Part shown: one piece after another, positions 3,623-20,010 of the stretch
Position numbering within the stretch: position 1 is the first letter of the stretch
Layout: each line of letters starts with the position of its first letter
Position numbers and translations under genes: made by a program
IMG/VR virus record: IMGVR_UViG_3300042564_003728
Direction: 5' to 3' (one strand)
DNA length: 64,000 nt
DNA from: a virus
The notes under the pieces: generated by a model
What the model was told of the DNA's origin: nothing
Databases searched by the model: none
Seen by the model: the letters and a program-made list of their open reading frames with translations, nothing else

Positions 3623-4954
3623 TCACACGGTTGCAGAAGCGGGCTGAGCCCATTTTGGCAGATTGTCTGGATTCGGTTCTAACCCGTACTTCGTTCTACG
3701 TATCTCGATGCAATTCGGAATGAATTTTAAGATCGCATCTGGAATACCAAATATCGGTTTTAAAATGATATTTAAAACCTGACAAATCGATACTTTGCCG
3801 CGACAGATGTCAATAATCAGTTTGATTGTGTCGAGGATTTTGCCTACGATTGGAAACTGCTGTAGAATCCAACCTGGAGCTTTGAGTATGATATCATGTA
3901 TCTTGGCAATCAAATCTGTCTGAAAGAACTTCTTAATCTTTTCCATGGCGTCTTCGAACGCATCTTCAATTCGATGCCACAATTCTTCTTTTGAATGAAT
4001 CGTTTCTTTCTTCTTACGTTCTTCGTTATCGAAACCAATTAAATTGCCTAAGGTTCCGAAGAGCGGGATCGGCAAGTTCAAGACAAAGTCTATGAGTTCT
4101 TGGAGTAACTTCTCTCCAAAGTCTTCGATAGCTTTACCTGATAAGACGTCTTCTTTTGCCTTCTTAATACGTTTCTTAAAATCTTCATACTTCAGTTTTA
4201 ATTGCGCTTTAATAGGCTTCGTAGGATCGATGAATACTCCAATCTTTTCAATGATTGGACCAATAATAGGAATCTTAGTCAGTAAGCCGATCAATGCATT
4301 GATGCAGGCGGCAATAAAATCGCTCAGCAGTTCTTTCATCCATGCCAAAGCTTTCTGCCAAAATTCTTCGGCTTCATGCTCAGGACTCTTAATACCCAGA
4401 GTTCCGTCGTATTTGCCATCACCAAAAAACTTTCGAACCGATTCGATGTCTTCGGCAATTGCAGCTTTGATCTTGACTTTACCTTCCTTCGTAAACAAAT
4501 CGTTGATTACTGGCTGATAACGAACAGGATTACCAGCTTCGTCGACGAGTGTTACAGCCGTAATGAATGGAATCGGGGTAGTAAGTGGATTTGGAATTCC
4601 AAGAATATCAACAATCTTGAGTAGTGCGTCGACGATCCTCTTCTGAAACCATACGTCGATCTCTTTTAAAAACTCGCGGACCTTATACTTCATCTCTTGT
4701 TCTTTTGACTTGATCTTCTTAAAGACGTCAGTCATCAGAATACCAGTAATATCATCGACTAGCTTTTCCATGTCTCGAATAGCTTCGATGAGTTCTTTGC
4801 CGCACTCGTCTTGAATAAACTTTGCTTGTAACTTCAGTTGGCTAATGATCTTTGCAATGCCTACGAAATAGTCTTCCATTTGACGGAAAGATATTTGCCC
4901 GTTAGGACCACATTCTAAATTAGGAACTTCAGGAACATAGACTATCGGTCTCAT
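3623..4954 (-). CDS. hypothetical protein (443 aa), baseplate-hub neighbourhood
   Basis: Long ORF that overlaps the gp5 stop (ATGA) and is co-oriented with structural genes; Lys/Ile/Glu-rich helical composition. Confidence 0.3.
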   Translation of the reverse strand: MRPIVYVPEVPNLECGPNGQISFRQMEDYFVGIAKIISQLKLQAKFIQDECGKELIEAIRDMEKLVDDITGILMTDVFKKIKSKEQEMKYKVREFLKEIDVWFQKRIVDALLKIVDILGIPNPLTTPIPFITAVTLVDEAGNPVRYQPVINDLFTKEGKVKIKAAIAEDIESVRKFFGDGKYDGTLGIKSPEHEAEEFWQKALAWMKELLSDFIAACINALIGLLTKIPIIGPIIEKIGVFIDPTKPIKAQLKLKYEDFKKRIKKAKEDVLSGKAIEDFGEKLLQELIDFVLNLPIPLFGTLGNLIGFDNEERKKKETIHSKEELWHRIEDAFEDAMEKIKKFFQTDLIAKIHDIILKAPGWILQQFPIVGKILDTIKLIIDICRGKVSICQVLNIILKPIFGIPDAILKFIPNCIEIRRTKYGLEPNPDNLPKWAQPASATV

Positions 4955-5760
4955 GCATTGATTCCAACAATTGCGGCTTGAATATCCACCGCGCCTGATT
5001 TTGATACCACCTGTACACTGCCATTATTAGCATAGATCCCTACATTGCCTTCGTTTGCAAAGATGTCGAGATCTGATTGAGCAGTGATAACAATCTTACC
5101 TTGGTTACATGTGATCTCAATATTCTTATCACCCTTCTCATCGCCGACATTAAAAATTGTCATGTTGCCTGAGGCTAATTGAATATGATCTTTTACTGAC
5201 TTTGTCACGATGGTTCCATCTGGCAAGATCTCGAGATAAGATCCTGACTTATGATAAACTTGTACGCGCTCTGATCCAGGAGTATCATCTAGCTCTACTA
5301 AGTGACCGCTGCGAGTAGTCATGGTATTATTATAAGGATATCTCGCCTTGTACTTCGATTCTGGTTCAACGTAGAAACCATCATCAGTCTTAATTCGATT
5401 TTGAGTTTTTTCTTCTGGTTCACCTTGACCACGAGCATATGAAGATACGCTGTGATTGCCTTCTGGCGCATAGTTTAACACACCAAGAATATATGCCGAC
5501 TGTTGATTTGGAAGCTTCATGCACATGACTCGAGATCCCTTTAAGAGACCAGTCGGACTTAATCCAATTCCAGAGACTCCGGCGCTCGTAGTTGGCATCA
5601 TAACATATGACGGTAATAAATCTTCAGAATTCACTTGATTAGAGTGACCTAAAAGTTCTCTTACTAAAACTCTGCCAGTTTGTGGTTTATCAGCTTCTAA
5701 ACCGAGATCTGTCGTCGGATCTTCTGCTACTATACCTTCAAAAAATCTTGGAACTTGCAT
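4951..5760 (-). CDS. 5: baseplate hub / central spike protein gp5-like (OB-fold plus beta-helix, no lysozyme domain)
   Basis: LPSYVMMPTTSAGVSGIGLSPTGLLKGSRVMC matches the T4 gp5 N-terminal OB-fold LPWAQVMLPSTAAGTSGIGTNHSLLEGAIVFG. The C-terminus VITAQSDLDIFANEGNVGIYANNGSVQVV is beta-helical-needle-like. At only 269 aa there is no room for a lysozyme domain. Confidence 0.65.
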   Translation of the reverse strand: MQVPRFFEGIVAEDPTTDLGLEADKPQTGRVLVRELLGHSNQVNSEDLLPSYVMMPTTSAGVSGIGLSPTGLLKGSRVMCMKLPNQQSAYILGVLNYAPEGNHSVSSYARGQGEPEEKTQNRIKTDDGFYVEPESKYKARYPYNNTMTTRSGHLVELDDTPGSERVQVYHKSGSYLEILPDGTIVTKSVKDHIQLASGNMTIFNVGDEKGDKNIEITCNQGKIVITAQSDLDIFANEGNVGIYANNGSVQVVSKSGAVDIQAAIVGINA

Positions 5761-5770
5761 TTATCATCCT

Positions 5771-7069
5771 CTAAACTGTGTGTGTTTTTGGCAATCCACC
5801 GATGCCATCTTTTACGAGCTCTAACCCCTGTGCATATTCTGCTTTTTCATTGAAAGTCAGCATATGACGGCATTTAGTTACAACATAATTACCTGTCGTG
5901 ACAGCGCTATCTTCATTCACAGGATTTTCTTCTCCTCTTGTAAGGCCAGCCGCTTCGGGTAATTGACAGTGAATCACATCTCCAACAGTAATGGCTGAAT
6001 CTCCATAAATAGTGATTTGCATAACCACTGTTAAAAAGTGACTCATGTAATAAGGCATATGATTAAACTTTTCGGCTCTCTCTGCATTTCCAACAGTCGG
6101 ATCAAAAGGAATCGCTCGAGGAGCTCCTTCATTTCCATCTTCAGTTTTCTCAACCTGAGCTTTAAGATTTGTAGATGCAGATCCTTCGTTTAGTGTTTCA
6201 AATTGTAAATTTTTTGGATCAGCTTGAAAAGAAATGATGTCTCCAGTGACACTATTTTGTAGTTGACACGTCGATCTTCCACCTCCAATTAATCTTAAAA
6301 TTCCTTCGTTGCCGCTTTGAATAATTTTAGTAGTTAAGATGTTTCTCCACTTTGCTCCGGTTACATTTAAGTTGGTTAAAGTAGATTGTGTAAAACACTT
6401 GTCGCCGATATTTTTTATGCCTTCTTTGATTAACGCTTCCATGCTTTTAAAAACAAATCCGTACTTGTTTTCAAAGAAGTAAAAACAATGGCCGTTAAAT
6501 TCTTGAGACATTGCATGTTCTAATCTAATTTGATCAATACACTCGAATGGAGTCTTTTCAGTAAAGTTAAATGCATGCAACCCACGAGTTTTTTCTGCAA
6601 AGAAAGGTTTATTTGATTTCGTTAAGTTAAGATATGCTTTTACCATATTCTCGCACTCGATGTTTTTCCTAACAAGCGGTGTGTTTTTTATGGTCGAAGC
6701 TTTCCATGCTTCATATGTAACACACTCCACTTTATAAATTAGTGCTTTATCATCGGGAGAATTAAAAGTAACTGGTTTATTAATAACATAAAGTTCGTAT
6801 CGAATAGACGATTTTGAATTATCTTCGTCTGTTGTAAAATCAATGATAATTTTCTTATCTGTAAAAACAAATTTATCTCCTGCGCCCTTCGCCTCATAGA
6901 ATTCGAATTGTGCACGAACAGCAGGTTCGAGTATAGATTCATATATGTTTGCTTGTACACAGACAGGAGTCAAATCAACAGCCTTGCCGCAATCGACAGT
7001 TTTTGCTGTATTATCAATCATTAAGAACTCGTTAAGTTTAAACTGCCCGTCTCTAATTTGAGAAATCAT
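5771..7069 (-). CDS. baseplate hub subunit, gp27-like (tentative)
   Basis: 432 aa immediately upstream of gp5, as in the T4 27-5 hub pairing. The C-terminal ITIYGDSAITVGDVIHCQLPE is loosely similar to T4 gp27 [22 protein letters not shown]. Weak call. Confidence 0.4.
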   Translation of the reverse strand: MISQIRDGQFKLNEFLMIDNTAKTVDCGKAVDLTPVCVQANIYESILEPAVRAQFEFYEAKGAGDKFVFTDKKIIIDFTTDEDNSKSSIRYELYVINKPVTFNSPDDKALIYKVECVTYEAWKASTIKNTPLVRKNIECENMVKAYLNLTKSNKPFFAEKTRGLHAFNFTEKTPFECIDQIRLEHAMSQEFNGHCFYFFENKYGFVFKSMEALIKEGIKNIGDKCFTQSTLTNLNVTGAKWRNILTTKIIQSGNEGILRLIGGGRSTCQLQNSVTGDIISFQADPKNLQFETLNEGSASTNLKAQVEKTEDGNEGAPRAIPFDPTVGNAERAEKFNHMPYYMSHFLTVVMQITIYGDSAITVGDVIHCQLPEAAGLTRGEENPVNEDSAVTTGNYVVTKCRHMLTFNEKAEYAQGLELVKDGIGGLPKTHTV

Positions 7070-7070
7070 A

Positions 7071-7913
7071 TTACGAACTCAATTGTTGTATAAATTGTTT
7101 TTCTGTTTCAGCGAGATAAGAAGACTTGAGAACAAATATATTTCGCTTCAATTCGTTTCTTTCTTTCTCATCATCATATGCATTTACGGCATACCAATAC
7201 TCTGTTTCTGCAGTAGAAATGTTTTGCTTTATCGGAGTAATTGTTTTTATTCCTTCTGCTTGATTGACTGCAAAAGTTCCGTTGACGTGCTTTACGGTTA
7301 AGCTATTATTTTCAAGATCAACATAGTCAACGGTCGCATAAGCACCAGTGCTCGTCTGAGACACTCGATCTCCGACTTGGAATTGTGTTGGAGAAGCAGT
7401 AAGAGTCAACGATAATATTTTGTTTGTGGATACTATCCAATCTTCTTTGATTCTTTCGTAGCCGATCACTGCACCAGTATTCGTAAGTTTTGGCTTCCAA
7501 TACTTTTGAGTATTTGTAGTTTCATCGGCAAGGAGAGAATCGTATTGTTGAAGAGTAATAATTCTTTCATCTTCATGCCAGTTTAATCGATAGAAGAGAG
7601 TAATCGCTCGAGCATTCGAATTTGATCCATACTTTGTTTCAATATAATTCTTAAAATCTTCTGCTGATTTATAGTAATCGTAATAAGGATCAACGATGTT
7701 GTTCGTAAGATAGATCATCCAGTCAAATTTCGAAGATCCGTAATAGTTATAAGACAAAATGTCTGGCCTCTCGAAGCCTTCTTCAAGAGTAAACTGAAAG
7801 GTAGAATAGATTTCTTTTTTTGTTTTATCAGTAAAGTCGACGCGTGCCAAGATATTCTTGGCAACGTTTCCTCCATAGTCTACAACTGGAAATCGATCGA
7901 AATATCTTGCCAT
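7071..7913 (-). CDS. hypothetical baseplate/structural protein
   Basis: 280-aa ORF in the late operon (7913/7916 stop-start junction); no diagnostic motif. Confidence 0.3.
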   Translation of the reverse strand: MARYFDRFPVVDYGGNVAKNILARVDFTDKTKKEIYSTFQFTLEEGFERPDILSYNYYGSSKFDWMIYLTNNIVDPYYDYYKSAEDFKNYIETKYGSNSNARAITLFYRLNWHEDERIITLQQYDSLLADETTNTQKYWKPKLTNTGAVIGYERIKEDWIVSTNKILSLTLTASPTQFQVGDRVSQTSTGAYATVDYVDLENNSLTVKHVNGTFAVNQAEGIKTITPIKQNISTAETEYWYAVNAYDDEKERNELKRNIFVLKSSYLAETEKQFIQQLSS

Positions 7914-7915
7914 TA

Positions 7916-9199
7916 TTAGGGTTTCTTTTCTTCTTTATTACTAAGCGCACCTTCTACGTAACCCGTAGTGTCAGCTATTGTTTTATCAATATTAAAATCA
8001 AGTCCTGCAGCATCAATGCCTTTTTGTATTTGCGTCTTGAAAGTTTCCCAAGTTTCGCTCAGACGATCTCCGCCTTCTCTGCCATAATCACGCGAAGTTT
8101 GAATCTGTGTTTCAATCATTGAAATTGAACATTCGATAAATGCCGGGTGGCTTGTGCCTTCAAAGAATGCAGGAATTCCTTGTGGAGAGTAATTGAGTTC
8201 AATCGATTGAATGAGACACGGGAAAAATTGAATTAATCCAGGTTCACCTTTCATAATTCTTAATTCTGGTTGACATAAGAAAGGATATGCGAGGGCCGCA
8301 GTTCCTAAGCTACTATATGATGGCAAAGCATATGCTTTCATTGCTTTCAACAGATTCATTAACTGTTGACTTTCTTCTGGATTACGAGGAGCAAAAGTCC
8401 ATTCGAATCTGTGAGTACGGAGTGGAACGCCGCTAAATAAAGCTTGTATGTGAGGATTTGGAACAGCGCCAATCGCTTGAGCGCCGAGAGCTCCTACATC
8501 TCCTGTTGATTGAACCATCGCGCTAAAAGCAAGCGCGGCGACTGAATTTGTTATGGCTTGTGTTCGTTCTTTACCGCCTGGTGCTGTTACAAAGTTTTGC
8601 ATCGCATCTGCAATTCCACCTTTCAGACCTGTGGCATTTGGAGCAACTTCAATATCAAAGCTTTCTCTTATTCCTTTCGGAAGAGGAAGAGCAAATGCTT
8701 GTACAAACTTAAGATCTCCTTTTGTATGAGGAGAAGGACGTTGGTATTGTTTAAACTTAAATGACATATAATAATTTTCACTGATGTGGTCAGGAAATTG
8801 CATCGTATCCAAACCATCAACAGTAATTTTATTCGAAGCTCTTTGAATAGCATCAACATATGTTTCGGCAAAAGCAGAAGCACCTATGATATTACCATTC
8901 TGTGGATTGAAATTGTTACGAATGTCGGCGCAAGATGCTCGTTTCATTTCGCTTGTAAATGTTTGGAAATACTTGTCTTCGAGGCCGGCAGTTAAAGAAT
9001 CTCCGAATCTTGCAGAAAGTTTCGCTGCAGTTGCATCAGAAAATCCTGCCTTCTTTAGTGCTTTGGCAAAAAGATCTTCGACTGCATTCTCGAGTTTATC
9101 TTCGAGCTTATTCGTAATCCTTTTAGCAAGGTTATTCAGAAGCCCTCCCGAGCCCTTTTTAAAGTCATCTAAGCTTATTAAAAATCCGTCTCTTGCCAT
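7916..9199 (-). CDS. virion structural protein (unassigned)
   Basis: The ORF track begins at a TTG at 9211. The first ATG (9199, MARDGFLISL) lies 32 nt downstream of a late promoter TATAAATA and is preceded by GAGAG. Confidence 0.35.
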   Translation of the reverse strand: MARDGFLISLDDFKKGSGGLLNNLAKRITNKLEDKLENAVEDLFAKALKKAGFSDATAAKLSARFGDSLTAGLEDKYFQTFTSEMKRASCADIRNNFNPQNGNIIGASAFAETYVDAIQRASNKITVDGLDTMQFPDHISENYYMSFKFKQYQRPSPHTKGDLKFVQAFALPLPKGIRESFDIEVAPNATGLKGGIADAMQNFVTAPGGKERTQAITNSVAALAFSAMVQSTGDVGALGAQAIGAVPNPHIQALFSGVPLRTHRFEWTFAPRNPEESQQLMNLLKAMKAYALPSYSSLGTAALAYPFLCQPELRIMKGEPGLIQFFPCLIQSIELNYSPQGIPAFFEGTSHPAFIECSISMIETQIQTSRDYGREGGDRLSETWETFKTQIQKGIDAAGLDFNIDKTIADTTGYVEGALSNKEEKKP

Positions 9200-9231
9200 A
9201 CTGTCTCTCAAATTTAAAAAGGCTATCAGCT

Positions 9232-9243
9232 TATTTATAAATA
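9232..9243. promoter_or_regulatory. palindromic bidirectional T4-type late promoter TATTTATAAATA
   Basis: The 12-mer is its own reverse complement and contains TATAAATA in both orientations. It sits between the divergent late genes 7916-9199 (minus) and 9249-9689 (plus). Confidence 0.5.
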
Positions 9244-9248
9244 GATTT

Positions 9249-9689
9249 ATGGCTTATCAAGGAAAGTTTCGACCAAAGGATATAAAGAAATATCTCGGGG
9301 ACTCGAACAATATCGTATATCGTAGTCGATGGGAACTTAAGTTCATGATGTACTTAGATTCTCATCCGAATGTCGTGCAGTGGGGGAGTGAAGAGTTAGT
9401 GATTCCTTATCGCTCTCCTCTCGACAATCGTGTACATCGATACTTTCCAGACTTCATTGTGAAGAAAAAATCACCAGAAGGAAAGATCGATACGATTGTC
9501 GTCGAAATAAAACCTCATGCGCAGACACGGCCTCCGGTGGTGATAAATAAGCCTAATAAGCGTTACATTAATGAAGTCATGACATGGGGTGTCAATGAAG
9601 CCAAATGGAGAGCTGCAGCAGTATACTGCAATGATCGCGGTTGGAAGTTCGACATACTTACAGAAAAAGAACTAGGAATTAAGTTTTAA
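9249..9689 (+). CDS. head completion protein gp4-like (tentative)
   Basis: 146 aa from the first ATG after the late promoter; the size and position next to baseplate genes fit T4 gp4. The upstream 121 codons of the ORF-track entry (8886-) overlap the divergent promoter and the antisense of the neighbouring gene. No SD sequence, so the start is uncertain. Confidence 0.4.
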   Translation: MAYQGKFRPKDIKKYLGDSNNIVYRSRWELKFMMYLDSHPNVVQWGSEELVIPYRSPLDNRVHRYFPDFIVKKKSPEGKIDTIVVEIKPHAQTRPPVVINKPNKRYINEVMTWGVNEAKWRAAAVYCNDRGWKFDILTEKELGIKF

Positions 9690-10288
9690 TGGCAATAGTC
9701 TTTGATACTATCATCACACAAGGTGTTCGTTCAGGACAGATTCCTGCGCGTACGAACTCTGCGCGTGAGTGGTTCAGAGATACTGCCGGCAAAATGAATC
9801 GTATCAATGAGCGTGAGATGATGAAGGGTGACGTAAGTCGTATGACTACTCAGCCTCTGCTCGGCTCGATGTACATGTTCTACTATGATCCGAAACATAA
9901 AGAAGAGCTTCCATACTACGACAGATTTCCTCTGATCTTTCCATATAAGAAAGTCAAAGGCGGATTTATGGGACTCAACTTACACTACTTGCCGTTGCAA
10001 CTCAGAGCGAAGTTAATGGACGGTTTATATGACTTTGCAAACAATACTCGTTACGACGAGTCGACTCGTCTGAAACTCAGCTACGAACTCATGACTCAGG
10101 CAGCAAAGCTAAGATGGTATGCTCCATGCATTAAGCATTATTTGGCTTCACATGTGCAGTCAAAGTTTATGTACGTTTACCCATCAGAATGGGATATCGC
10201 TCTCTTTTTACCAACAGAACGTTTCGTCAAAGCAAGAAAGAACCAAGTTTGGATGGACACGAAAAGAATGCTAGGAGTTACTAAGTAA
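9689..10288 (+). CDS. baseplate wedge protein, gp53-like (tentative)
   Basis: 199 aa (T4 gp53 is 196 aa); lies between gp4 and the tube-family protein, as in marine T4-like phages; ATGA coupling on both sides; the sequence match is weak. Confidence 0.3.
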   Translation: MAIVFDTIITQGVRSGQIPARTNSAREWFRDTAGKMNRINEREMMKGDVSRMTTQPLLGSMYMFYYDPKHKEELPYYDRFPLIFPYKKVKGGFMGLNLHYLPLQLRAKLMDGLYDFANNTRYDESTRLKLSYELMTQAAKLRWYAPCIKHYLASHVQSKFMYVYPSEWDIALFLPTERFVKARKNQVWMDTKRMLGVTK

Positions 10289-11589
10289 TGTCAAACAAAG
10301 CTGAAGGAAGAACCAAACAAAATACCCTCGCCGGGAGACTTTTAACTTTTGCAAGTCCAGCAGTTGAGGCTTTATCTGGAAAACCTATCAGTGCATTTGT
10401 TCAGGCGAGTCAAACGAAAGGTGGTAGAGGCGGAGGAAGAGCTCCACAAGGATCATCAGAGCGTGCTCATCAAGATGTATTTGATAGGATTGCGGCTCGT
10501 GATAATCCGCAAGGCGCGCAGGGCTCTCAAGGCGCAACAAGCAGAGGTGGTGCACAAGGTGCAACTGCGAAACCTAAGCCTGCGGCAAAAACACAAGTAG
10601 CTAAAGGCGTCAATAATAATACAAAACAAGAAATTGAAACTAAAAATTCTGAATTTAGCACCGGTGAACGCAGTAAAGGCATATTTAATATCGGTCGATT
10701 TAGAGCCGAAGTTTCTGGTGCAGATAGTATACTTCCTACACATAGCTTCTTAACAGTTTTTGCTCCGATGCCATGGGCAATAAAAAAGTTTCCAGCCGGA
10801 AATCTCGATTCGATTCTGACAATGAGATGCGATAATGTTGTTCTTCCTTCTATTAATCTATTACAAGAACAAAATATCAGAAGATACGGATTTGGTCCAG
10901 TTGAAAATGTTGCGTATGGCGTAAATGTCGGAGATTTTACTCTTCAGTTCATCGTCGATAAAGACGCGCTGGTTGTAGAATTCTTTGAAGAATGGTTAAA
11001 TCTAATCGTCAATCGCGACTCTTTTGGTGGCGCGAATATGAATAATAATAAAATTGGTGGTTTGCGAAGACCATATGAGATCGCTTACAAAGATACGTAT
11101 GCGTGTCCGAATGTAAATGTATTTGTATATGATCGGTCACAAAATGCTGTGATGGAATATCATATATATGATGTGTTTCCTACCGGCATACAAAGCATGA
11201 ATATGTCATGGAGCGAAGAAAATACTTTAATGAAGTTAAACATCACTTTTTCTTTTACTGATCTTCGAATTGAAAGATCGAAATCGAAGAATAAAAAAAG
11301 CCAATCGATTAATGATGAAATTAAAGTGACTGCGACTGGTCCGTATGCGGTTCAAGGAATGGGTGCTGGAGGTGTTGTTGATCTTGCTACTCTCGATCCA
11401 ACAGGCGCCCGAGGTCTTGAATTAACAGATCTATCAAATGAAACTACAATCATCGGCGATGGATTTAGATCAAGAGGTTCGCCACCTCCTCTTCCGCCAA
11501 ACACATTTTCTAACCGCGGCGTTGAACTCGCCGGGTTTCCGAAACGATATGACACACTTGGAAATCAAATAACAACTGTCGAAGCATAA
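10288..11589 (+). CDS. baseplate tail-tube cap / initiator of the gp19-gp48-gp54 tube family
   Basis: 433 aa. The core (CDNVVLPSINLL...YGFGPVENVAYGVNVGDFTLQFIVDKDALVVEFFEEWLNLIV) parallels T4 tail-tube gp19 (CKATALPAGIV...VGFMNRKINVAGDRTFDDWTVTVMNDEAHDARQKFVDW). There is a Gly/Ala/Gln-rich low-complexity N-terminus. Confidence 0.55.
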   Translation: MSNKAEGRTKQNTLAGRLLTFASPAVEALSGKPISAFVQASQTKGGRGGGRAPQGSSERAHQDVFDRIAARDNPQGAQGSQGATSRGGAQGATAKPKPAAKTQVAKGVNNNTKQEIETKNSEFSTGERSKGIFNIGRFRAEVSGADSILPTHSFLTVFAPMPWAIKKFPAGNLDSILTMRCDNVVLPSINLLQEQNIRRYGFGPVENVAYGVNVGDFTLQFIVDKDALVVEFFEEWLNLIVNRDSFGGANMNNNKIGGLRRPYEIAYKDTYACPNVNVFVYDRSQNAVMEYHIYDVFPTGIQSMNMSWSEENTLMKLNITFSFTDLRIERSKSKNKKSQSINDEIKVTATGPYAVQGMGAGGVVDLATLDPTGARGLELTDLSNETTIIGDGFRSRGSPPPLPPNTFSNRGVELAGFPKRYDTLGNQITTVEA

Positions 11590-11612
11590 TTTATAATTTA
11601 GGAGAATATATA

Positions 11613-12323
11613 ATGCCTTTACCAAAAATCGACCAACCACTCTTTGACGTGACGATTCCCTCTTCAAAGAAAAAGATTCTCTTTCGACCATTCTTGGTGA
11701 AAGAAGAAAAGATCTTGCTCATCTCTCAACAAGGCGGCGAAGACACTGATGTGATCAGAGCCATCAAACAGATCTTAAAACTTTGCGTGCAAGATGAAGA
11801 TTTTGATGTCGATAAGCTTACGACTTTCGATCTTGAATATTTGTTCTTAAAACTGCGAGCGAAATCTGTCAACAACATTGTCAAGTTATCTTATCGTGAT
11901 AACGAAGACGATAAAGTTTATGACTTTGAATTAAACCTTGATACGATTGAAGTCGAAATGCCAGAGGGTATTGATTCGACTATTAAACTGTCTGATAATA
12001 TTGCAATGATCATGAAGTATCCGAGCTCGAGCATCACTGATAAAATCACGCAGTTTGATAATGAAGTCGATCTCATGACATTCTTTATCATTAACTGTAT
12101 CGATACCATCGTAACAGAAGAAGAAATTTATCCTGCTTCTGAATATACAGACAAAGAACTCGAAGAGTTTCTCGATCAATTGCCAGTCAATTCTTTCGAT
12201 TTAATTCGGCAATTCTTTGAGAAGATGCCGAAGTTATATCATAAGATTGAATACACAAATGAACTTGGTAATGATAGGAGTATCGAGTTAACGAATCTCA
12301 AAGATTTTTTTATGTGGCGCTGA
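11613..12323 (+). CDS. hypothetical tail/baseplate assembly protein
   Basis: 236 aa, acidic; strong RBS aggaga 8 nt upstream; lies in the late plus-strand block. Confidence 0.3.
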   Translation: MPLPKIDQPLFDVTIPSSKKKILFRPFLVKEEKILLISQQGGEDTDVIRAIKQILKLCVQDEDFDVDKLTTFDLEYLFLKLRAKSVNNIVKLSYRDNEDDKVYDFELNLDTIEVEMPEGIDSTIKLSDNIAMIMKYPSSSITDKITQFDNEVDLMTFFIINCIDTIVTEEEIYPASEYTDKELEEFLDQLPVNSFDLIRQFFEKMPKLYHKIEYTNELGNDRSIELTNLKDFFMWR

Positions 12324-12352
12324 GTCACAACTCGCTTCAAAACTACTATAGT

Positions 12353-12496
12353 ATGATCTTTGCTTTGGCTCAGCATCACAAATATTCGATAACTGAGATC
12401 GAAAACTTAATACCTTATGAAAGAGATCTCTACGTTGATTTATTAATGGCTCATCTTGAAGAACAGAGACAAGAAATAGAGAGTAGAAGAAAGTAA
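12353..12496 (+). CDS. small hypothetical protein (possible chaperone for the downstream tape measure)
   Basis: 60-codon ORF 12314-12496 whose stop abuts the ATG of the 748-aa protein; an internal Met (MIFALAQHH...) is the likelier start. Confidence 0.2.
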   Translation: MIFALAQHHKYSITEIENLIPYERDLYVDLLMAHLEEQRQEIESRRK

Positions 12497-14742
12497 TGCC
12501 TAGGTTATTTGAAACACCGGTTTCTGCTGCAGTAAAATCGACCATCGAAGGTACTTTCGGTCTAGCAGGAAAAGTAGTAGAAGCTGCTGGCAATGCCGTG
12601 CGCGGCGTTGGAGAAGCGGTAGGAGGAGCTCTCGAAGGAGCTCTTTCTCCTGCACCGGTAACTGTTATTAATGGTGTTGGTATGGCAGGTCAAGCCGGAA
12701 AGTCGAAAGTGTCTGGTTCAGGCACTATTCCCGCTTCTCCTAAAAAGTCTGCACGACCGGCTGTCAATCCAAATATGCCTACAGAAAAACTGTTAGTAGT
12801 AGCAGTCAATTATCTTTCTTCGATTGAAAAAACTCTTGAGCAACAACTTCAGTTTGAAAAAAGAGCATTTCAGCAACAAGCTCAAGCAGAAAAAGAAGCG
12901 TCGATCGAATCCGGTGGAAGTTCATTTCAAAATCCGTTTAGTAATTTAGGAGAAAAACTCGACGCGATAAAAGATAATGCCAAAGAAAGAGCTGGAACTG
13001 TAGGAAAGCTTTTAATCGGTGCCGGTTTGCTTGGTACTCTTGGCCTCGCTGCTCTTGGAAATTTAGACACATCACAATTAGAAGAACTAAAATCGAATTG
13101 GGCGGCTTTTACTGATAAGATATCTCCTATCATTGATTTCGTTCAAAATTTTGCAGCCGCATTGGGCACAACAGCAATCGCAGGAGCGGCAGTAGGAAGT
13201 GTTTTCGGTTGGAGAGGAGCACTCCTCGGATTAATTGGCGGGAAAATATATGAAGATGCTTATGGAACATTTAATGAAAAAACAGGACAAAGAGAAGGTG
13301 GTCAAGGACTGCTTTCATCGATAGTTAGTAATTTTCCACTCGCAGCGGTAGCTATAGCTCCTGTCACCGCTATTAAATTTGCATATAAAGGACTTAAAAC
13401 TATAGCAGGTGCACTTACTGCTTTTACAAAAAAACAAGCAGCAAGATTTATGGCATGGTTTGCAGAAAAAGCCTTTATACGTTTCGCTTTCTCTGCATAC
13501 GGTAAAAATAGATTGTGGAATCTTTTCTTAAGATACTTAGAAAAGAAAGCTCAGCAAAGACTTCTTGCTCAAATTGCTGCTGTGGCCGCTACGACCGCCG
13601 CTACTACTGCTGCTGAAGCTACACTAGCTGCCACCGGTATAGGTGCACCAGTGGCTGCGGTTTCTGCCGTGGTAACAAAGCTAATAGCAGCAGGTTTTAC
13701 TGCTTGGTTGCTATGGGATTTGTATCAAATTTGGGTAGAATTCTCGGAAACAGCAGAAGCGAGAGCACAAGAAGCTACCGACGATGAAAGAGCAAATGCA
13801 TCGCCTGTATCTACAGCCGCAACACCTGACGCGACAGCAACATCCGGATCTGCAAATATATCAGGCGCTCCTGTGGCTTCTGCAGCTCAAACACAAAATC
13901 TTCCTTCAATTCCTGCAGACGTAGAAAAAATCCTTGCTACTATCAGAACACGCGAGTCTGGTGGCAATTATGGTATTCCACATCCTAATGGCATGCCAGG
14001 TCAAACTGCATCCGGCGCTTATGCATTTACAAATGGATCTTGGAGAGGATTAACTAAAAAGTATAATATAGGAACAGAATATAGTAGCGCCTATCTTGCT
14101 CCGCCGCCTATTCAAGATGCTGTTGCCGCAAAATACGTTCAAGAAATATTACAAAAAGCCGGCGGTGATGTTTCGAAAGTTCCACTTGCCTGGTATACAG
14201 GCAATATACAAGGAAAGATGTCTGCAAAGGCGCTTGCTATAAACAATGGTATGACTCCACAAGCATATCAAGCAAAATGGATGGCAGATTATACCGGTGG
14301 AAAATATTCGGCTTCTTCTTATGATTCGCAAGGAGCAAGTTCGCAAGAATCAAAAGGTGTTATGGGTTCTCTTGCTGATTTAGGCAAAGGCGCAATTGAA
14401 AGCGCCGGTAAAGTGTTTCAAGCCAGTCTTGGAGAGATGAGTCTTACAACCGGTTCGCAGTTATCTAATAAATTTAATAATAATATGCAAACTCCTGTAA
14501 AATCAGAATCTGCGGCAGCTGCCAAAATTTCTAAAATATCTACAGAATTACAAAACACGGTTGATTTAGGGAAATTAGATTCTACTAAAGCAGCAACCGA
14601 ACCAGCATCTGCAAATATATCTCCTATTGGAAAACCCGGATCTTCAAACGATAGTAAGCGAGATCACTTTGATCCGAATTACCCAAGCGATAGCTTGCTT
14701 ATGGAAAAATATATGCAACATCAAAAATTGGTAATTGCATAA
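12496..14742 (+). CDS. tail tape-measure protein (gp29-like) with C-terminal lysozyme-like / lytic transglycosylase domain
   Basis: 748 aa with an Ala/Gly-rich helical N-terminus and hydrophobic Ala-rich segments (AAVAATTAATTAAEATLAATGIGAPVAAVSAVV). A C-terminal block RTRESGGNYGIPHPNGMPGQTASGAYAFTNGSW resembles SLT/GH23 catalytic motifs. Position ahead of the tube-cap genes is as in T4 (29-48-54). Confidence 0.5.
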   Translation: MPRLFETPVSAAVKSTIEGTFGLAGKVVEAAGNAVRGVGEAVGGALEGALSPAPVTVINGVGMAGQAGKSKVSGSGTIPASPKKSARPAVNPNMPTEKLLVVAVNYLSSIEKTLEQQLQFEKRAFQQQAQAEKEASIESGGSSFQNPFSNLGEKLDAIKDNAKERAGTVGKLLIGAGLLGTLGLAALGNLDTSQLEELKSNWAAFTDKISPIIDFVQNFAAALGTTAIAGAAVGSVFGWRGALLGLIGGKIYEDAYGTFNEKTGQREGGQGLLSSIVSNFPLAAVAIAPVTAIKFAYKGLKTIAGALTAFTKKQAARFMAWFAEKAFIRFAFSAYGKNRLWNLFLRYLEKKAQQRLLAQIAAVAATTAATTAAEATLAATGIGAPVAAVSAVVTKLIAAGFTAWLLWDLYQIWVEFSETAEARAQEATDDERANASPVSTAATPDATATSGSANISGAPVASAAQTQNLPSIPADVEKILATIRTRESGGNYGIPHPNGMPGQTASGAYAFTNGSWRGLTKKYNIGTEYSSAYLAPPPIQDAVAAKYVQEILQKAGGDVSKVPLAWYTGNIQGKMSAKALAINNGMTPQAYQAKWMADYTGGKYSASSYDSQGASSQESKGVMGSLADLGKGAIESAGKVFQASLGEMSLTTGSQLSNKFNNNMQTPVKSESAAAAKISKISTELQNTVDLGKLDSTKAATEPASANISPIGKPGSSNDSKRDHFDPNYPSDSLLMEKYMQHQKLVIA

Positions 14743-16937
14743 TGGCTGAACCGGTTACGATTGGCGGCCAAACCTTCATTAAAACTGGTGATGGATGGGT
14801 AGATCAAAAAACAAAAATAAAAGCGCCCGAAGGCTTACTTAAGCTTCTGAATAATCTTCAATCTGAGAATTCTCTTTCTGAAGGCAAGAAGAAGCGTGTT
14901 CGTATTGATCCTTCTCGACCTGTTATAAAACTCGGTAAAACAGAATATGTATGGGATCTCAACGGAAAAGTATGGATCGATAAGAAAACAAGAGAAGCTT
15001 CGAATCCGCGTTTTAGCTTATTGATTGAAGCAACATATCAGTCGACACTCGGCAGTGATCAGTTACAAGATCCCGGTACACCAACTCCAAGCACTGCGGC
15101 CGCAAAAGCAGCAATGAAAGATGTGCTTGCAAATAATATGTTTGCAACAAATCAAAAAACAAAAACTTCGAAGACAGGAAGCGGCACACTTCCTTCAATG
15201 AGTAATATTAAAATTAATTCTCCTATCGTTCAGATGATAGAGAAGCTAGCTACGATTGACGGTTATCTCAAGCAAAGATTAAATAACAATATATCTTCAT
15301 ATAATACGCGCAGTGTTTCTACAAAAGAACAATCGATAGAACAAGGTGCATCGCAAACAGATGCTACTCCTAATTTAGAACAAGAAAAAGTCGATGCTGA
15401 AGTAGAAAAAGCAAATAAAGAATCGAATGGTATATTATTAGGTGCAGCTGTTGCAGCTGGAGCTCTTTTTATATCTCAACTCGATCCGGTAAAAGAAACT
15501 TTTAATGCTATTGTAAACTTTGCAAAAGGTGTTTATGATTTTGCATCAGGAATAGCTGGAGTTTTTAATGATGGCCTACGCAATATTGTAGGAACTCCAG
15601 AGTCAAGAGCAGCAGAAAAATTATCAACTGAAACTGGTTCTTCTGCAACAGGCGTAACACAACCTTCCGCCGAAATGCAACAAACCAACGACCAATCAGA
15701 AGATTCCACAGCATTTTCAGGTCCAAAACAACCTGTTACTTCTGGCAATAAAGCTTCAAGTGGACCGAATTCACCCGAAGAAATTTTAACTGCTTTTCCG
15801 GGGCCTAAATCTTCTTCAAAATCCGGTACTTCCGGTGGCACAACAGGGTCAAAAGGTTCTGATGCTACTCGCGCTTCTTCTGCAACCGCTGTAACGCCTT
15901 CTTCTTCTGCAACCGCTGTAACGCCTTCTTCTTCTGCAGCTACAACTCCTTCTTCTGCAGCTACAACTCCTGCTTCTGCAACTCCTGCAGCTACTCCAGC
16001 TACTACGGCACCAGCTAATGGTACAAAATCTACGGCGCCGGCACAAGCAACTCAAACGGGTGGATCTTCTCCTAGCGCAACTTCTAATCAATCATTGAGT
16101 AAAGCTACTCGACTAGCTGCTAGTCAAGTTGGTATTGGTGAATCACAAATAGGCAACTATTTAAGACAAGGTGGCGTCGGATTAGATCCGCGAAATGAAA
16201 AATGGTGCTCGGCATTTGTAAACTCTACACTCGCTCAAGTTGGATTAAAAGGCGCAACTAACATAGCTAATAGCTTTCAAAAGTGGGGAGATAATGTTCC
16301 AGTGTCTTCTGTTCAAGAAGGCGACATTGTTATTCAAACTCGTGGTTTAGGTCCAGATGTTGCTGGTGGCCATATAGGTATCGCAACAGGCGTAAGACAA
16401 GGAAACAAAGTCGAGCTCATAGCCGGTAACACTAGCAATAAAGTTAAGAGATATTTTTTAGATAACAATGCTAAAAATGGATTGCAAATAAGAAGATATA
16501 ACCCGCAAAAACCATATGGCAAAGGAGCAGTGGGAGGAGCGCCATTAGGAGGAACCGGAGATAGCGCTTTGGAACAAGCGGTTGGAGCCGGCGTTGATTT
16601 AACGGAGGGCGCGATCAAGGCAGTTGGAAATATTCTAAGTGCTGCTTTAGGACCTATGAGTATTACTACTGGATCACAACTTCAAAATAGTTTTAATAGT
16701 ACAATGTCAAGTGATATAGGAAAAGCAGCAAGAGAAAAAACAAATGCGATTGTCGATTCAAAAATTATAGAATCTGCAGCTGCTACGATAAAGACGAGTT
16801 CAGCAGATACAAAGGCTTCTGCGAGTTCTTCTCAAATGCAAATCGCTGAGTCGACTGGAGATAACGCCAGCATTCAATATTACTTAACTCGTATGGGATT
16901 TGCGCCGCTCGATTATAAACAAGCGGCAAGAGCATAA
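14742..16937 (+). CDS. virion-associated peptidoglycan hydrolase with CHAP domain
   Basis: 731 aa. The CHAP catalytic pair is present (EKWCSAFVNS Cys, AGGHIGIATGV His). There is an upstream Ser/Thr/Ala tandem-repeat linker, and the C-terminal 45-aa module is shared with the preceding protein. ATGA-coupled to it. Confidence 0.6.
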   Translation: MAEPVTIGGQTFIKTGDGWVDQKTKIKAPEGLLKLLNNLQSENSLSEGKKKRVRIDPSRPVIKLGKTEYVWDLNGKVWIDKKTREASNPRFSLLIEATYQSTLGSDQLQDPGTPTPSTAAAKAAMKDVLANNMFATNQKTKTSKTGSGTLPSMSNIKINSPIVQMIEKLATIDGYLKQRLNNNISSYNTRSVSTKEQSIEQGASQTDATPNLEQEKVDAEVEKANKESNGILLGAAVAAGALFISQLDPVKETFNAIVNFAKGVYDFASGIAGVFNDGLRNIVGTPESRAAEKLSTETGSSATGVTQPSAEMQQTNDQSEDSTAFSGPKQPVTSGNKASSGPNSPEEILTAFPGPKSSSKSGTSGGTTGSKGSDATRASSATAVTPSSSATAVTPSSSAATTPSSAATTPASATPAATPATTAPANGTKSTAPAQATQTGGSSPSATSNQSLSKATRLAASQVGIGESQIGNYLRQGGVGLDPRNEKWCSAFVNSTLAQVGLKGATNIANSFQKWGDNVPVSSVQEGDIVIQTRGLGPDVAGGHIGIATGVRQGNKVELIAGNTSNKVKRYFLDNNAKNGLQIRRYNPQKPYGKGAVGGAPLGGTGDSALEQAVGAGVDLTEGAIKAVGNILSAALGPMSITTGSQLQNSFNSTMSSDIGKAAREKTNAIVDSKIIESAAATIKTSSADTKASASSSQMQIAESTGDNASIQYYLTRMGFAPLDYKQAARA

Positions 16938-17934: not shown

Positions 17935-18510
17935 TCATGAAGTAAAGGCAGCCTTGACAATTTTTCTACATTTAAATGCATCATAATGAAAGAAAGGCTT
18001 ATACTTCAGCAGCTTCTTGTGGATGCTGGGCCATAGGACACCATCCTCAATCTTCTTGTTCCAATGACCGAAGAACCCGAAGATATCATTGAGGATAATC
18101 ACCGTCTCGATAGAAATCTCTCGACGAAGATATTGTTTCAGTAAGAAGGGATGTTGCCCATTCTTTACAATAACACAATCATTGAAATTTGTACATAGTT
18201 TTTTTACGTCTTCTTCGAAGATATAAGAAAGAGACTGCTGTCTCTTCAACCATTCATTGTACACTTTCTCTGAGTCATCGCCGAACAGATCGCCTATCCA
18301 TTTTAAATCGCCATCTACAAAGTTGGCAACAAGATATTTGAGTGGATCTTTATGTTTCGACAACTTATAGAACTGATACTTGTCCTTACGTACATCAAAG
18401 CTCGAAGGCTTTGCGCCTATCTTGCCGTTGTATTTGATGTAGTCATAGCTGTCTGTTGTGAAGTGGTTTTTAAGGGCGAGGAAAGTGGTGTAGCTCTCGA
18501 ATGGAGTCAT
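17935..18510 (-). CDS. 59: gp59 helicase-loading protein
   Basis: 191 aa; YDYIKYNGK...RKDKYQFYKLSKHKD parallels T4 gp59 YDVIKYNW...RRDKYFFQKLSEKYK; the gene order 33-59-32 is conserved. Confidence 0.75.
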   Translation of the reverse strand: MTPFESYTTFLALKNHFTTDSYDYIKYNGKIGAKPSSFDVRKDKYQFYKLSKHKDPLKYLVANFVDGDLKWIGDLFGDDSEKVYNEWLKRQQSLSYIFEEDVKKLCTNFNDCVIVKNGQHPFLLKQYLRREISIETVIILNDIFGFFGHWNKKIEDGVLWPSIHKKLLKYKPFFHYDAFKCRKIVKAAFTS

Positions 18511-18761
18511 ACTGGTAGCTTAGCCCTCTTTGGCATGAAGTTGAGTTCTTCTGCTTCGTCTTGAAGCTTTGCCTTGATACGAATGTTACTACGAATGATA
18601 CTCGCAGCAGCCTCGATCTCGATGTTATTCTTTTCACAATAGTGGACGACGGCATCCATATAATCTAAATCATAATTAATAACCAGTCGTTCAATTTCTT
18701 TAATGAACTTTTCAGAAGTCAATGCTTTCGTTGAAATGACGTCGTCCACCATAATAATCAT
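18507..18761 (-). CDS. 33: late-transcription coactivator gp33-like
   Basis: 84 aa; YDLDYMDAVVHYCEKNNIEIEAAASIIRSNIRIKAKLQDEAEELNF parallels T4 gp33 EFGMSYLEATTAFLEENSIPETQFAKFIPSGIIEKIQSEAIDENLL; lies immediately upstream of gp59 as in T4. Confidence 0.55.
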   Translation of the reverse strand: MIIMVDDVISTKALTSEKFIKEIERLVINYDLDYMDAVVHYCEKNNIEIEAAASIIRSNIRIKAKLQDEAEELNFMPKRAKLPV

Positions 18762-19336
18762 CCTCTATAAAAAATGTGTGCACCAATCTTAGTCGTACGA
18801 GCAAACACTCTACCCCATGACGGACTTACGTAGTCAGCGTGGTAAAACTTTGCTCCCTTTGTTACGTCACCGTAATTTCCGAGATACACATGTTCGGCGA
18901 TTTCCTTTGATTTTGCAAAAGCTACACCGTCACGAATTCTTTTTCCACCCTCACACTTCCATGAAAATTGGCATACGCGCGCAGTTCTCTGATTGATAAC
19001 TCCACATGGCGTGCTTGGGAAACGATCGTCTTTTGCGCGGTTCAAAACAACATTGTTTACCGCAATCCTACCTTTATAAGGTTCATGAGCCGCTTCGAAG
19101 TATGTATTCTCGGCCATGCATTGGATTTGTTTTTTGTCGTAGTTGCTCAGATAGACTGGCTTCTTTACGACCTTTTCTTTTTCGATTACCTGAATGACTG
19201 GGACCTTTACGATCTTGACTTCAGGTTCTTTGTTTGGTGTAGCCAAAGCCACGCCTGTTACTGCAATGATACCTATGACAAAGCCTTCGGCCCAGCGTAG
19301 ATACGGGAAATCTTTTCTAGTTTCGAAAAGTTTCAT
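18758..19336 (-). CDS. SleB/CwlJ-family cell-wall hydrolase with N-terminal membrane anchor
   Basis: 192 aa; hydrophobic segment WAEGFVIGIIAVTGVALA; Hydrolase_2-like core KKQIQCMAENTYFEAAHEPYKGRIAVNNVVLNR. Confidence 0.55.
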   Translation of the reverse strand: MKLFETRKDFPYLRWAEGFVIGIIAVTGVALATPNKEPEVKIVKVPVIQVIEKEKVVKKPVYLSNYDKKQIQCMAENTYFEAAHEPYKGRIAVNNVVLNRAKDDRFPSTPCGVINQRTARVCQFSWKCEGGKRIRDGVAFAKSKEIAEHVYLGNYGDVTKGAKFYHADYVSPSWGRVFARTTKIGAHIFYRG

Positions 19337-19499: not shown

Positions 19500-19970
19500 G
19501 GTGGCATCCGAATGATGCCGCTTTCTAGCCATCTAAGACTTGAAGTTTTGCAAGAGTCAATGGAGGATTCTAACCTCCGTCGTGATATTTTATTTATACT
19601 ACCACCAGCGGTTTTTCTGGTGACTCGTAGCACCAGAGATTCAACTGGTAGCAAGTGGCCCGTTCTGTTCCAAGGTGGAGCCATACCCGTGTAGATCATG
19701 CCGCTAGGCGGATATCTGCAAAGCTATCGTTATCGTTAGCATTTATGTTTAGTGGCACTTTGCCAGGCAATCAGTCTCGAACCGCCCTATTACACGAAAA
19801 TCGAATTCCAAGGTCACCCCCATCATCTACTATGCAAACACGCTTCGGCTTCCTGGCATGTTCGGGATACGATTATAACCGTATCCGGATTAATGCATAG
19901 TAGATGGTGGAGGTGCGGGGAGTCGAACCCCGGTCTTTCCGCCTTTATTGTTGATTGTCAACAACTGATA
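19500..19970 (-). ncRNA. ssrA: permuted (two-piece type) tmRNA gene. Acceptor piece is about 19970-19905, intervening hairpin 19904-19822, coding piece 19821 to about 19500.
   Basis: The minus strand reads ...GGCGGAAAGAC-CGGGG-UUCGACU-CCCCG-CACCUCC-A-CCA (T-arm plus acceptor 3' strand, G3:U70-compatible). An 83-nt spacer is closed by the 11-bp helix UCUACUAUGCA/UGCAUAGUAGA. Then comes GGGGGUGACCUUGGAAUUCGAUUUUCG (tmRNA 5' end, which pairs 7/7 with CACCUCC). The tag ORF GCU AAC GAU AAC GAU AGC UUU GCA GAU AUC CGC CUA GCG GCA UGA encodes ANDNDSFADIRLAA, 81 nt from the 5' G. The 3' boundary of the coding piece is uncertain. Confidence 0.6.
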
Positions 19971-19995
19971 TACTATATATACAATGTTTTTCTTT

Positions 19996-20010
19996 AATTG
20001 TACATGCTTA
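19996..20010 (-). promoter_or_regulatory. promoter-like motif upstream of tmRNA (TAAGCATGTACAATT, then a 17-nt spacer, then ATATAT)
   Basis: A member of the recurrent AAACATGTACAA motif family. The TGTACA hexamer, a 17-nt spacer and a TATATA -10-like element (19980-19974) precede the predicted tmRNA precursor start. Confidence 0.4.

Follow-up and report, generated by a model that had tools for sequence, protein, structure and literature searches.

Enzymes that attack the bacterial cell wall are already well known from the tape-measure and tail-tip proteins of bacteriophages, and what we report here overturns no principle. The tape measure Pb2 of T5 has a muralytic motif embedded in it, and the lysozyme of T4 forms the middle domain of the central spike protein gp5, at about residues 174-339. 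On entry gp5 digests the wall locally, with Glu184, Asp193 and Thr199 as the catalytic residues of its lysozyme (PMC3004832). In mycobacteriophage TM4, the tape measure gp17 contains Rpf-like and mt3 motifs, and the motif aids infection of stationary-phase cells (PMC1796659); enterococcal phage tape measures have embedded transglycosylases (PMC10194240); and in the Anabaena myophage A-1(L), glycan- and peptide-cutting activities were shown experimentally for the hub protein gp15, at the tip of a contractile tail (PMC10966104). Here we analyse a stretch of 64,000 nucleotides (the window) of the IMG/VR record IMGVR_UViG_3300042564_003728, whose source is an uncultured T4-like myovirus. Its gp5-like spike is devoid of the lysozyme domain, and two adjacent genes on the + strand, for protein A (12496-14742, 748 amino acids (aa)) and protein B (14742-16937, 731 aa), appear to encode a duplicated pair in the place of a tape measure, with a predicted sugar-chain cutter in A and a predicted peptidase in B.

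Protein A is a large scaffold with an enzyme of the GH23 class set into it. An earlier note, made from the sequence alone, had recognized an SLT-like domain in this gene from the string ESGGNYG...SGAYAFTNGSW. The gene coordinates were right, the string lies at residues 487-516, and the domain around it (residues 470-600, 13903-14295, + strand, codon of Glu487 at 13954-13956) is of the GH23 (SLT/Rpf-like) muralytic type by several lines of evidence. It is however internal, since about 150 conserved residues follow it, and the protein does not end in it as had been written. When scanned alone against PF06737 the domain obtained 19.6 bits (E 1.5e-3), under the cut-off of 27. Orthologous proteins contain a sister module whose core can be aligned closely with that of the window domain, and this module passed the cut-offs both of PF06737 (29.5 bits) and of SLT PF01464 (23.6 bits for a cut-off of 21.3). 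Moreover, a profile of the A module matches the phiKZ gp144 transglycosylase (E 5e-4), and in this alignment Glu487 pairs with the Glu of the gp144 'IES' motif; the catalytic residue of gp144 is Glu115. The AlphaFold model of A is confident at residues 460-600, with a predicted local distance difference test (pLDDT) of 70-92, and has there a lysozyme-like alpha-helical fold. Indeed, Foldseek against the PDB returned nearly exclusively GH23 enzymes for it (gp144, Slt70, P. aeruginosa Slt, Cj0843, MltE, MltD, T7 gp16), with a probability of 1.0 for 3bkh and individual E-values that are weak, 9e-3 at best. E487-S488-G-G-N-Y and A505-S-G-A-Y-x-F are invariant in 59 homologues of A, the Glu-Ser catalytic motif standing at the end of the first helix. 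From the weak PF06737 score, the sister module, the gp144 profile match, the modelled fold and this invariant pair taken together, protein A is predicted to carry a GH23-type sugar-chain cutter. phiKZ gp144, T7 gp16 and E. coli Slt70 share the fold and the Glu-Ser motif with the A module and are unrelated to A outside the catalytic domain. When the two enzyme domains, that of A and that of B, were each compared with PDB sequences by single-sequence phmmer, all matches were at chance level.

Protein B starts within the stop codon of A (TAATG) and carries, at residues 485-575 (16194-16466, + strand), a predicted cysteine peptidase of the CHAP/NlpC-P60 type, in agreement with the Cys/His peptidase that had been proposed for this gene. 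Taken alone the domain passes the cut-off of CHAP PF05257 (27.2 bits for 26), and it scores 23.6 bits within the full-length protein; it also matches phrog_1259 (E 7e-19), NLPC_P60 (E 7e-4) and, under the cut-off (51.8 bits for 70.55), TIGR02594 (E 1e-13). Cys489 (codon 16206-16208), His544 (codon 16371-16373) and Asn563 are invariant in 18 homologues, the triad being assigned from motif position and not from structure. Over this domain the AlphaFold model, built on a shallow alignment, stays below a pLDDT of 50, so the papain-like fold is not modelled reliably. The first 100 residues of B (14742-15041, + strand) form two repeats of a beta-hairpin plus helix that are nearly invariant across homologues and are modelled with a pLDDT of 70-81. 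Foldseek of the model, in which these residues alone are confident, found no PDB fold match.

A and B are paralogues. BLASTP aligns one with the other at 3e-15, hidden Markov models (HMMs) of their N- and C-terminal scaffolds cross-match at 1e-6 to 1e-17 in every locus, and both, long scaffolds that are for the most part helical or disordered, follow the same order of parts: a conserved N-terminal helix (VAVNYLSSIEKTLEQQL in A, IVQMIEKLATIDGYLKQRL in B), one or several hydrophobic segments, a linker in which Ser, Thr, Ala and Pro abound, the enzyme, and a common C-terminal motif. The Gly/Ala/Leu-rich hydrophobic segments number four in A, where a hydropathy scan places these membrane-segment-like stretches at residues 168-407 (12997-13716, + strand; the helices are modelled at low confidence), and one in B, at residues 229-250 (15426-15491, + strand). 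The linker is 50 residues long in A and 171 in B. The motif that follows the enzyme, GAI[EK]..G....A.LG.MS[LI]TTGSQL.N.FN, stands at residues 632-661 of A (GAIESAGKVFQASLGEMSLTTGSQLSNKFN, 14389-14478, + strand) and at residues 623-652 of B (GAIKAVGNILSAALGPMSITTGSQLQNSFN, 16608-16697, + strand), within the conserved C-terminal tails of the two proteins (residues 632-748 and 623-731, respectively). In all loci the two genes are adjacent and overlap at stop and start. A search of a large protein database returned 148 relatives of A, about 750 aa long, and 171 of B. The scaffold of A gave no match in Pfam or PHROG.

Across these relatives, of which more than 200 are metagenomic, the ends of both families are highly conserved and the enzyme region is variable. 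Clustering of this region distinguished seven module types in the A slot and eleven in the B slot, which we labelled from Pfam scans of module representatives. In the A slot, the labelled modules are SLT/Rpf (PF06737 and SLT) and PF18013 'phage tail lysozyme' (5.6e-32); the others are one further type (P0071) and a group of three, related to one another, that have an NNPG[GN]I motif. In the B slot, CHAP, M23 (2e-33), M15_4 (8e-19), VanY (2.6e-18), Amidase_2 (1.4e-10) and M15_3 (1e-6) were found, together with several weakly LAS-like or unclassified types, P0161 among them. Wherever a module can be identified, it is a sugar-chain cutter in the A slot and, in the B slot, an enzyme that cuts peptides or an amidase. 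Over 45 IMG/VR loci the modules of the two slots are freely combined, with 14 different pairings in 27 distinct loci: the SLT/Rpf module goes with CHAP, VanY, M23 or LAS-like partners, and PF18013 with three M15 types. These patterns indicate that the slot enzymes have been exchanged many times among relatives and that the two slots were shuffled independently. Residues 1-460 of A, used as the query of an exhaustive search, yielded 82 clusters at 50% identity; five of the ten remote relatives that we scanned carry PF18013, SLT or a GH24 lysozyme, and the other five (515-555 aa) gave no credible Pfam match. The NNPG[GN]I modules of the A slot (P0004, P0022 and P0005; for instance L016 6186-8447 and L020 6564-8870), which are common in the clade and belong to no Pfam family, weakly match phrog_873 'endolysin', one of them also phrog_2276 'tape measure'. 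They probably represent a class of wall hydrolases not yet characterised.

The spike through which T4 delivers its lysozyme has another composition here. The gp5-like protein (4951-5760, - strand) is only 269 aa long and is made of an N-terminal OB fold and a short C-terminal beta-helix, of the trimeric kind found in gp5. The OB fold was recognized by Pfam Gp5_OB at residues 41-120 (E 1.9e-9), and the beginning of the beta-helix by phrog_430 (E 1.4e-43). BLASTP aligned residues 6-78 with 10-82 of T4 gp5 and residues 129-209 with 375-455, skipping T4 residues 83-374, so that the gap between the two alignments comprises 51 residues in the window and 293 in T4, about 240 fewer. Pfam found no Phage_lysozyme in the 269-aa protein, and detected it at residues 183-310 of T4 gp5 as a positive control. 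The absence of the T4 lysozyme domain, which the earlier note had deduced, is thereby confirmed. It is not a rarity: in the gp5 of S-ShM2, S-CREM2, S-N03 and phiM7, Pfam detected spike domains and no lysozyme domain, and the gp5 of the window can be aligned over its full length, in one piece, with some Vibrio phages.

How, then, could the wall be breached? The window shares with T4 (Tevenvirinae) the OB fold and beta-helix of gp5, a gp27-like protein, gp48, gp53, gp54 and gp51 homologues and a hub operon. T4 differs in having its enzyme inside gp5, with one gp29 and one lysozyme, whereas the window has two proteins directed at two classes of bond, neither of which matches the T4 tape-measure family PF25671. 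A and B are located downstream of a gp51 homologue and of a 60-aa hub catalyst, like T4 genes 27-28-29 and the annotated tape measure of Cr30, so they stand in the place of these genes. Devoid of their enzyme domains, both would measure about 600 residues, T4 gp29 having 590, the Cr30 tape measure 562 and phiM7 gp108 567. Hydrophobic stretches after the N-terminal part are also seen, by eye and with no statistics, in T4 gp29, in the phiM7 candidate and in the cyanophage proteins discussed below. The pairing of a glycan- with a peptide-cutting enzyme was rightly noted before and is no product of chance; the two are encoded by adjacent genes of a structural operon headed by a late promoter motif. 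Our preferred reading, to which we give a probability of roughly 0.6, is that A and B are a tape-measure-like virion pair in the T4 27-28-29 position, which functionally replaces the gp5 lysozyme during entry and does not serve for lysis.

The mechanism that we propose for it is built on what has been suggested for T4 gp29 and on the tape measures with muralytic motifs. A and B would sit in the hub and in the lumen of the tube, like T4 gp29; contraction of the sheath would drive the enzyme-less spike through the outer membrane; and A and B would then be expelled into the periplasm, where A could cut the glycan strands and B the peptide stems, both locally. The hydrophobic segments of the two proteins may contribute to the route through the inner membrane. 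We infer delivery through the tube from the position and architecture of A and B, from the virion data on S-CREM2 and from the increase of protein length with tail length.

These last data come from cultured T4-like cyanophages. S-ShM2, S-N03, S-H34 and S-CREM2 all present the order gp26-like, gp51-like, two large proteins, hub protein and OB-only gp5, and S-CRM01 has the same order with a single large protein. In S-ShM2 the two proteins are S-ShM2_013 (1083 aa, PF18013) and S-ShM2_014 (1205 aa, C39-like peptidase and GH24); in S-N03, with a tail of 138 nm, gp153 (933 aa, GH19) and gp152 (722 aa, GH24); in S-H34, with a tail of 129 nm, gp197 (936 aa) and gp196 (735 aa); and in S-CREM2, whose tail reaches 418 nm, gp208 (1565 aa, GH19) and gp209 (1456 aa, GH24). 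The single protein of S-CRM01, g61 (L058 9919-12513, 864 aa), which accompanies a tail of 140-170 nm, combines GH24 with a LAS-type metallopeptidase motif seen by eye, and is either a fusion of the two proteins or the form that preceded their duplication. The tail lengths compared here have been published, as has the recovery of gp208 and gp209 from caesium chloride-purified S-CREM2 virions with 73 and 71 unique peptides, respectively, by mass spectrometry (PMC10665884). The cyanophage proteins resemble A and B in their position after the gp26-like and gp51-like genes, their large size, their internal enzyme and the lysozyme-less gp5 that accompanies them. They differ in the enzymes, which are PF18013, GH19, GH24, a C39-like peptidase and probably a LAS-type one, with two in some proteins, and they are annotated as endolysin, chitinase or hypothetical and not as tail proteins. 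Within S-N03, the N-termini of the pair are alike at 2e-7. By eye only, we also noticed a CHAP/NlpC-P60-like region around residues 1060-1200 of S-CREM2 gp208.

The annotation of these counterparts bears on another reading, in which A and B would be endolysins that lyse the cell from within. GenBank calls the equivalents in S-CREM2, S-N03 and S-H34 'endolysin' or 'chitinase', and A and B do contain peptidoglycan hydrolase domains. However, about 600 of their about 740 residues form a conserved, non-enzymatic scaffold, their genes belong to the hub operon, and the S-CREM2 equivalents are abundant in virions. Furthermore, the window has a separate small wall hydrolase of 192 aa (18758-19336, - strand), of the SleB-type Hydrolase_2 family (PF07486, E 1.6e-23), which matches PHROG endolysin families, is conserved in a relative, and has a hydrophobic, membrane-anchor-like N-terminal segment. 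This enzyme, encoded between the gp33-like gene and a transfer-messenger RNA (tmRNA) gene, is likely the lysis enzyme, distinct from A and B, and probably a membrane-tethered or signal-anchor-release endolysin. We hold it very improbable that A and B themselves act in lysis.

The lengths of the cyanophage proteins speak to the tape-measure function. Tape measures usually change length through the gain of repeats or of low-complexity sequence. Compared with S-N03, both S-CREM2 proteins are longer by about 630-730 aa, and much of the gain is of this nature: gp208 has an additional Ser/Thr/Asn-rich tract, and in gp209 a 13-residue unit (FQQSMGSVAPAGG, with variants) is repeated in tandem over about 550 residues (L054 about 13400-15085). 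The scaling is not proportional, the added 280 nm corresponding to 2.05 Å per added residue if the two proteins are arranged in series and to 4.1 Å if they lie in parallel. The difference between S-CREM2 and S-N03 favours the arrangement in series, and the absolute lengths in S-N03 and S-CRM01 fit the parallel one. One could also imagine that just one of A and B is a tape measure, the other being an accessory hub or tail-tip lysin derived from the duplicated copy. S-CRM01 indeed manages with a single protein, and B has a distinct N-terminal domain and one hydrophobic segment, against four in A. Yet A and B both remain at about 680-780 aa across the clade, they share the conserved helix and the post-enzyme motif, and in S-CREM2 both equivalents, not one, are longer. 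A division of roles of this kind seems to us quite improbable.

Several observations weigh against our preferred reading of A and B as tape-measure-like entry proteins. Pfam T4_Tape_measure PF25671 recognizes T4 gp29, and with a threshold of E 0.01 it found no match in A or in B. Profiles of A and B compared by hhalign with T4 gp29 gave a probability of 0.2% or less, and phmmer no link; with the Cr30 tape measure, S-ShM2_013 and six aligned cyanophage N-termini also included, the hhalign probabilities stayed between 0.1 and 27%, with no convincing alignment. HMMs of the scaffold ends returned nothing below E 0.07 among T4, Cr30, phiM7 and cyanophage proteins, and profile comparisons detected no scaffold homology between the cyanophage counterparts and A or B. 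The term 'gp29-like' in the earlier note is therefore not supported as a statement of homology; A and B are plausibly tape measures by position, architecture and analogy. AlphaFold is confident only for the enzyme domain of A and for the first 100 residues of B. The inner density of the T4 tail tube is about 20 Å wide (PMC3004832), and a lumen of this size leaves little room for a folded enzyme domain of about 15 kDa. As for the cyanophages, virion presence is known for the positional equivalents of S-CREM2 only, which is another phage; its authors listed gp208 and gp209 as 'endolysins', perhaps carried in the capsid (PMC10665884); and in cluster C cyanophages both slots hold glycosidases (GH19, GH24), so that the division between glycan and peptide is not universal. 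Finally, the window has another candidate, a protein of 443 aa (3623-4954, - strand), all-helical and with much Lys, Glu and Ile, whose start overlaps the gp5 stop (ATGA) and which has a 446-aa counterpart in a relative. Pfam gave no match for it, and the match to phrog_1535 'tape measure' is weak (E 1e-3, 18 bits). It is possible that this protein is the tape measure, or an ejected protein. In phiM7, the gene after gp5 ends instead in an M15 peptidase.

Part of these observations would be accounted for if A and B were virion lysins without a measuring role, either anchored to the hub or baseplate or stored in the head as ejected proteins, as T7 gp16 is, and if another protein, such as the 443-aa one, determined tail length. 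This would agree with the lack of homology of A and B to any known tape measure, with the helical nature, translational coupling to gp5 and weak PHROG match of the 443-aa protein, with the finding that the Foldseek matches of A include gp16, a core protein of T7, with the capsid packaging proposed by the S-CREM2 authors, and with the crowding of the tube lumen that folded enzyme domains would cause. On the other hand, A and B are encoded in the hub operon, where Cr30 and T4 keep their tape measures; the one such protein of S-CRM01, with 864 aa, fits its tail of 140-170 nm; both equivalents are longer in the long-tailed S-CREM2, by the repeats and low-complexity sequence described above; and a score of 18 bits is all that speaks from PHROG for the 443-aa protein. 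We regard this alternative as rather unlikely.

If A and B are tape-measure-like entry proteins, as we favour, they resemble the siphophage tape measures in that the tube-filling protein, the first to leave the tail, contains a wall hydrolase, in the Rpf/SLT-type motif found in A, and in serving entry and not lysis. The siphophage proteins are single and belong to non-contractile tails, whereas the window would have two paralogues in a contractile tail of the T4 type, each with an exchangeable slot for one class of bond. A-1(L) also differs, as its enzymes are domains of the hub protein and its tape measure gp13 is a separate protein without enzymes. As far as could be found, the literature holds no earlier description of such a duplicated pair in T4-like phages, of a slot for each bond class, or of the free exchange of cassettes. 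The layout is not special to the window: it is common to a large uncultured clade and, by position, to cultured T4-like cyanophages. Among 50,697 phage records, neither megablast with the A-B region nor tblastn with protein A found a match, and protein B found matches through its CHAP domain only.

Such a pair would explain how T4-like phages with a lysozyme-less spike, among them the abundant marine cyanophages and this clade, could breach the wall, and a conserved pair of large genes labelled 'endolysin', 'chitinase' or 'hypothetical' could be re-labelled as probable tail entry proteins. The exchanged cassettes amount to a catalogue of entry enzymes drawn up by nature, in which two or three module types belong to no recognized class, and the system offers a test bed for a tape-measure-like protein that carries a folded enzyme. 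More speculatively, in T4-like phages outside Tevenvirinae two paralogous lumen proteins might jointly set tail length, perhaps in a staggered or end-to-end arrangement. Each would reserve its slot for one bond class, and recombination at the conserved flanks, the linker and the post-enzyme motif, might exchange the enzymes so as to follow the wall chemistry of the host. We consider this extension doubtful; if true, the slot pair would be a host-range marker readable from metagenomes.

The rest of the locus is of T4 type. Pfam and PHROG identified as structural and replication neighbours gp6, gp25, gp5, gp53, gp48, a gp4-like nuclease, a gp54/tube-like protein, a PF12322 protein, gp32, gp59 and a gp33-like late coactivator (18507-18761). 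Two divergent structural operons are separated by a pair of T4-type late promoter motifs arranged back-to-back in the palindrome TATTTATAAATA (9232-9243, both strands), and the window contains 10 copies of the late promoter motif TATAAATA, where 2.7 would be expected. Only 5 bases separate the end of the + strand motif from the ATG at 9249, so that the leader would be very short or absent.

The leftward operon encodes, in order, gp48, gp53, a 432-aa hub protein, gp5 and the 443-aa protein. The tube cap gp48 (7916-9211, - strand) was recognized by Pfam T4_tail_cap and phrog_230, and the wedge protein gp53 (7071-7913, - strand) by Pfam Phage_gp53 and phrog_232. The 432-aa hub protein (5771-7069, - strand) matches phrog_350 'tail protein' (E 7.7e-39) and is gp27-like by position only, BLASTP having found no similarity to T4 gp27; the cyanophages have the same hub-protein neighbour beside gp5.

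The rightward operon runs through gp4-like, gp2-like, gp54, hub assembly protein and 60-aa protein to A and B. Its first gene (9249-9689, + strand) encodes a gp4-like head completion nuclease (Pfam Tn7_TnsA-like_N, E 1.2e-23), followed by a gp2-like protein (9689-10288, + strand), whose 199-aa orthologue in a relative carries PF26869 Phage_T4_gp2, and by the gp54/tube-like protein (10288-11589, + strand; phrog_45 tail tube, E 5e-32). The hub assembly protein (11613-12323, + strand, 236 aa) matches PF12322 (E 5.5e-55) and is 42% identical to Cr30 and cyanophage proteins. The 60-aa 'hub assembly catalyst' (12314-12496, + strand) is 53% identical to S-ShM2_012 (E 1e-22). According to Pfam, the PF12322 'T4_baseplate' model also matches T4 gp51, and PF12322 is thus the gp51 family. 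The names in use conflict on this point: in cyanophage records the PF12322 homologue is called 'gp26', and the 60-aa protein downstream of it 'gp51-like'.

Beyond the small wall hydrolase lies the tmRNA gene (19654-20008, - strand), which is permuted (two-piece), of the alphaproteobacterial type, and encodes the tag peptide ANDNDSFADIRLAA. In Rfam it scores 89 bits with tmRNA_permuted (cut-off 47) and 54.2 bits with alpha_tmRNA (cut-off 50). This type points to an alphaproteobacterial host, and the host is probably an alphaproteobacterium. The tmRNA gene occupies the same place in seven of nine related IMG/VR loci; in one case the tag is ANDNNAYEGLALAA.

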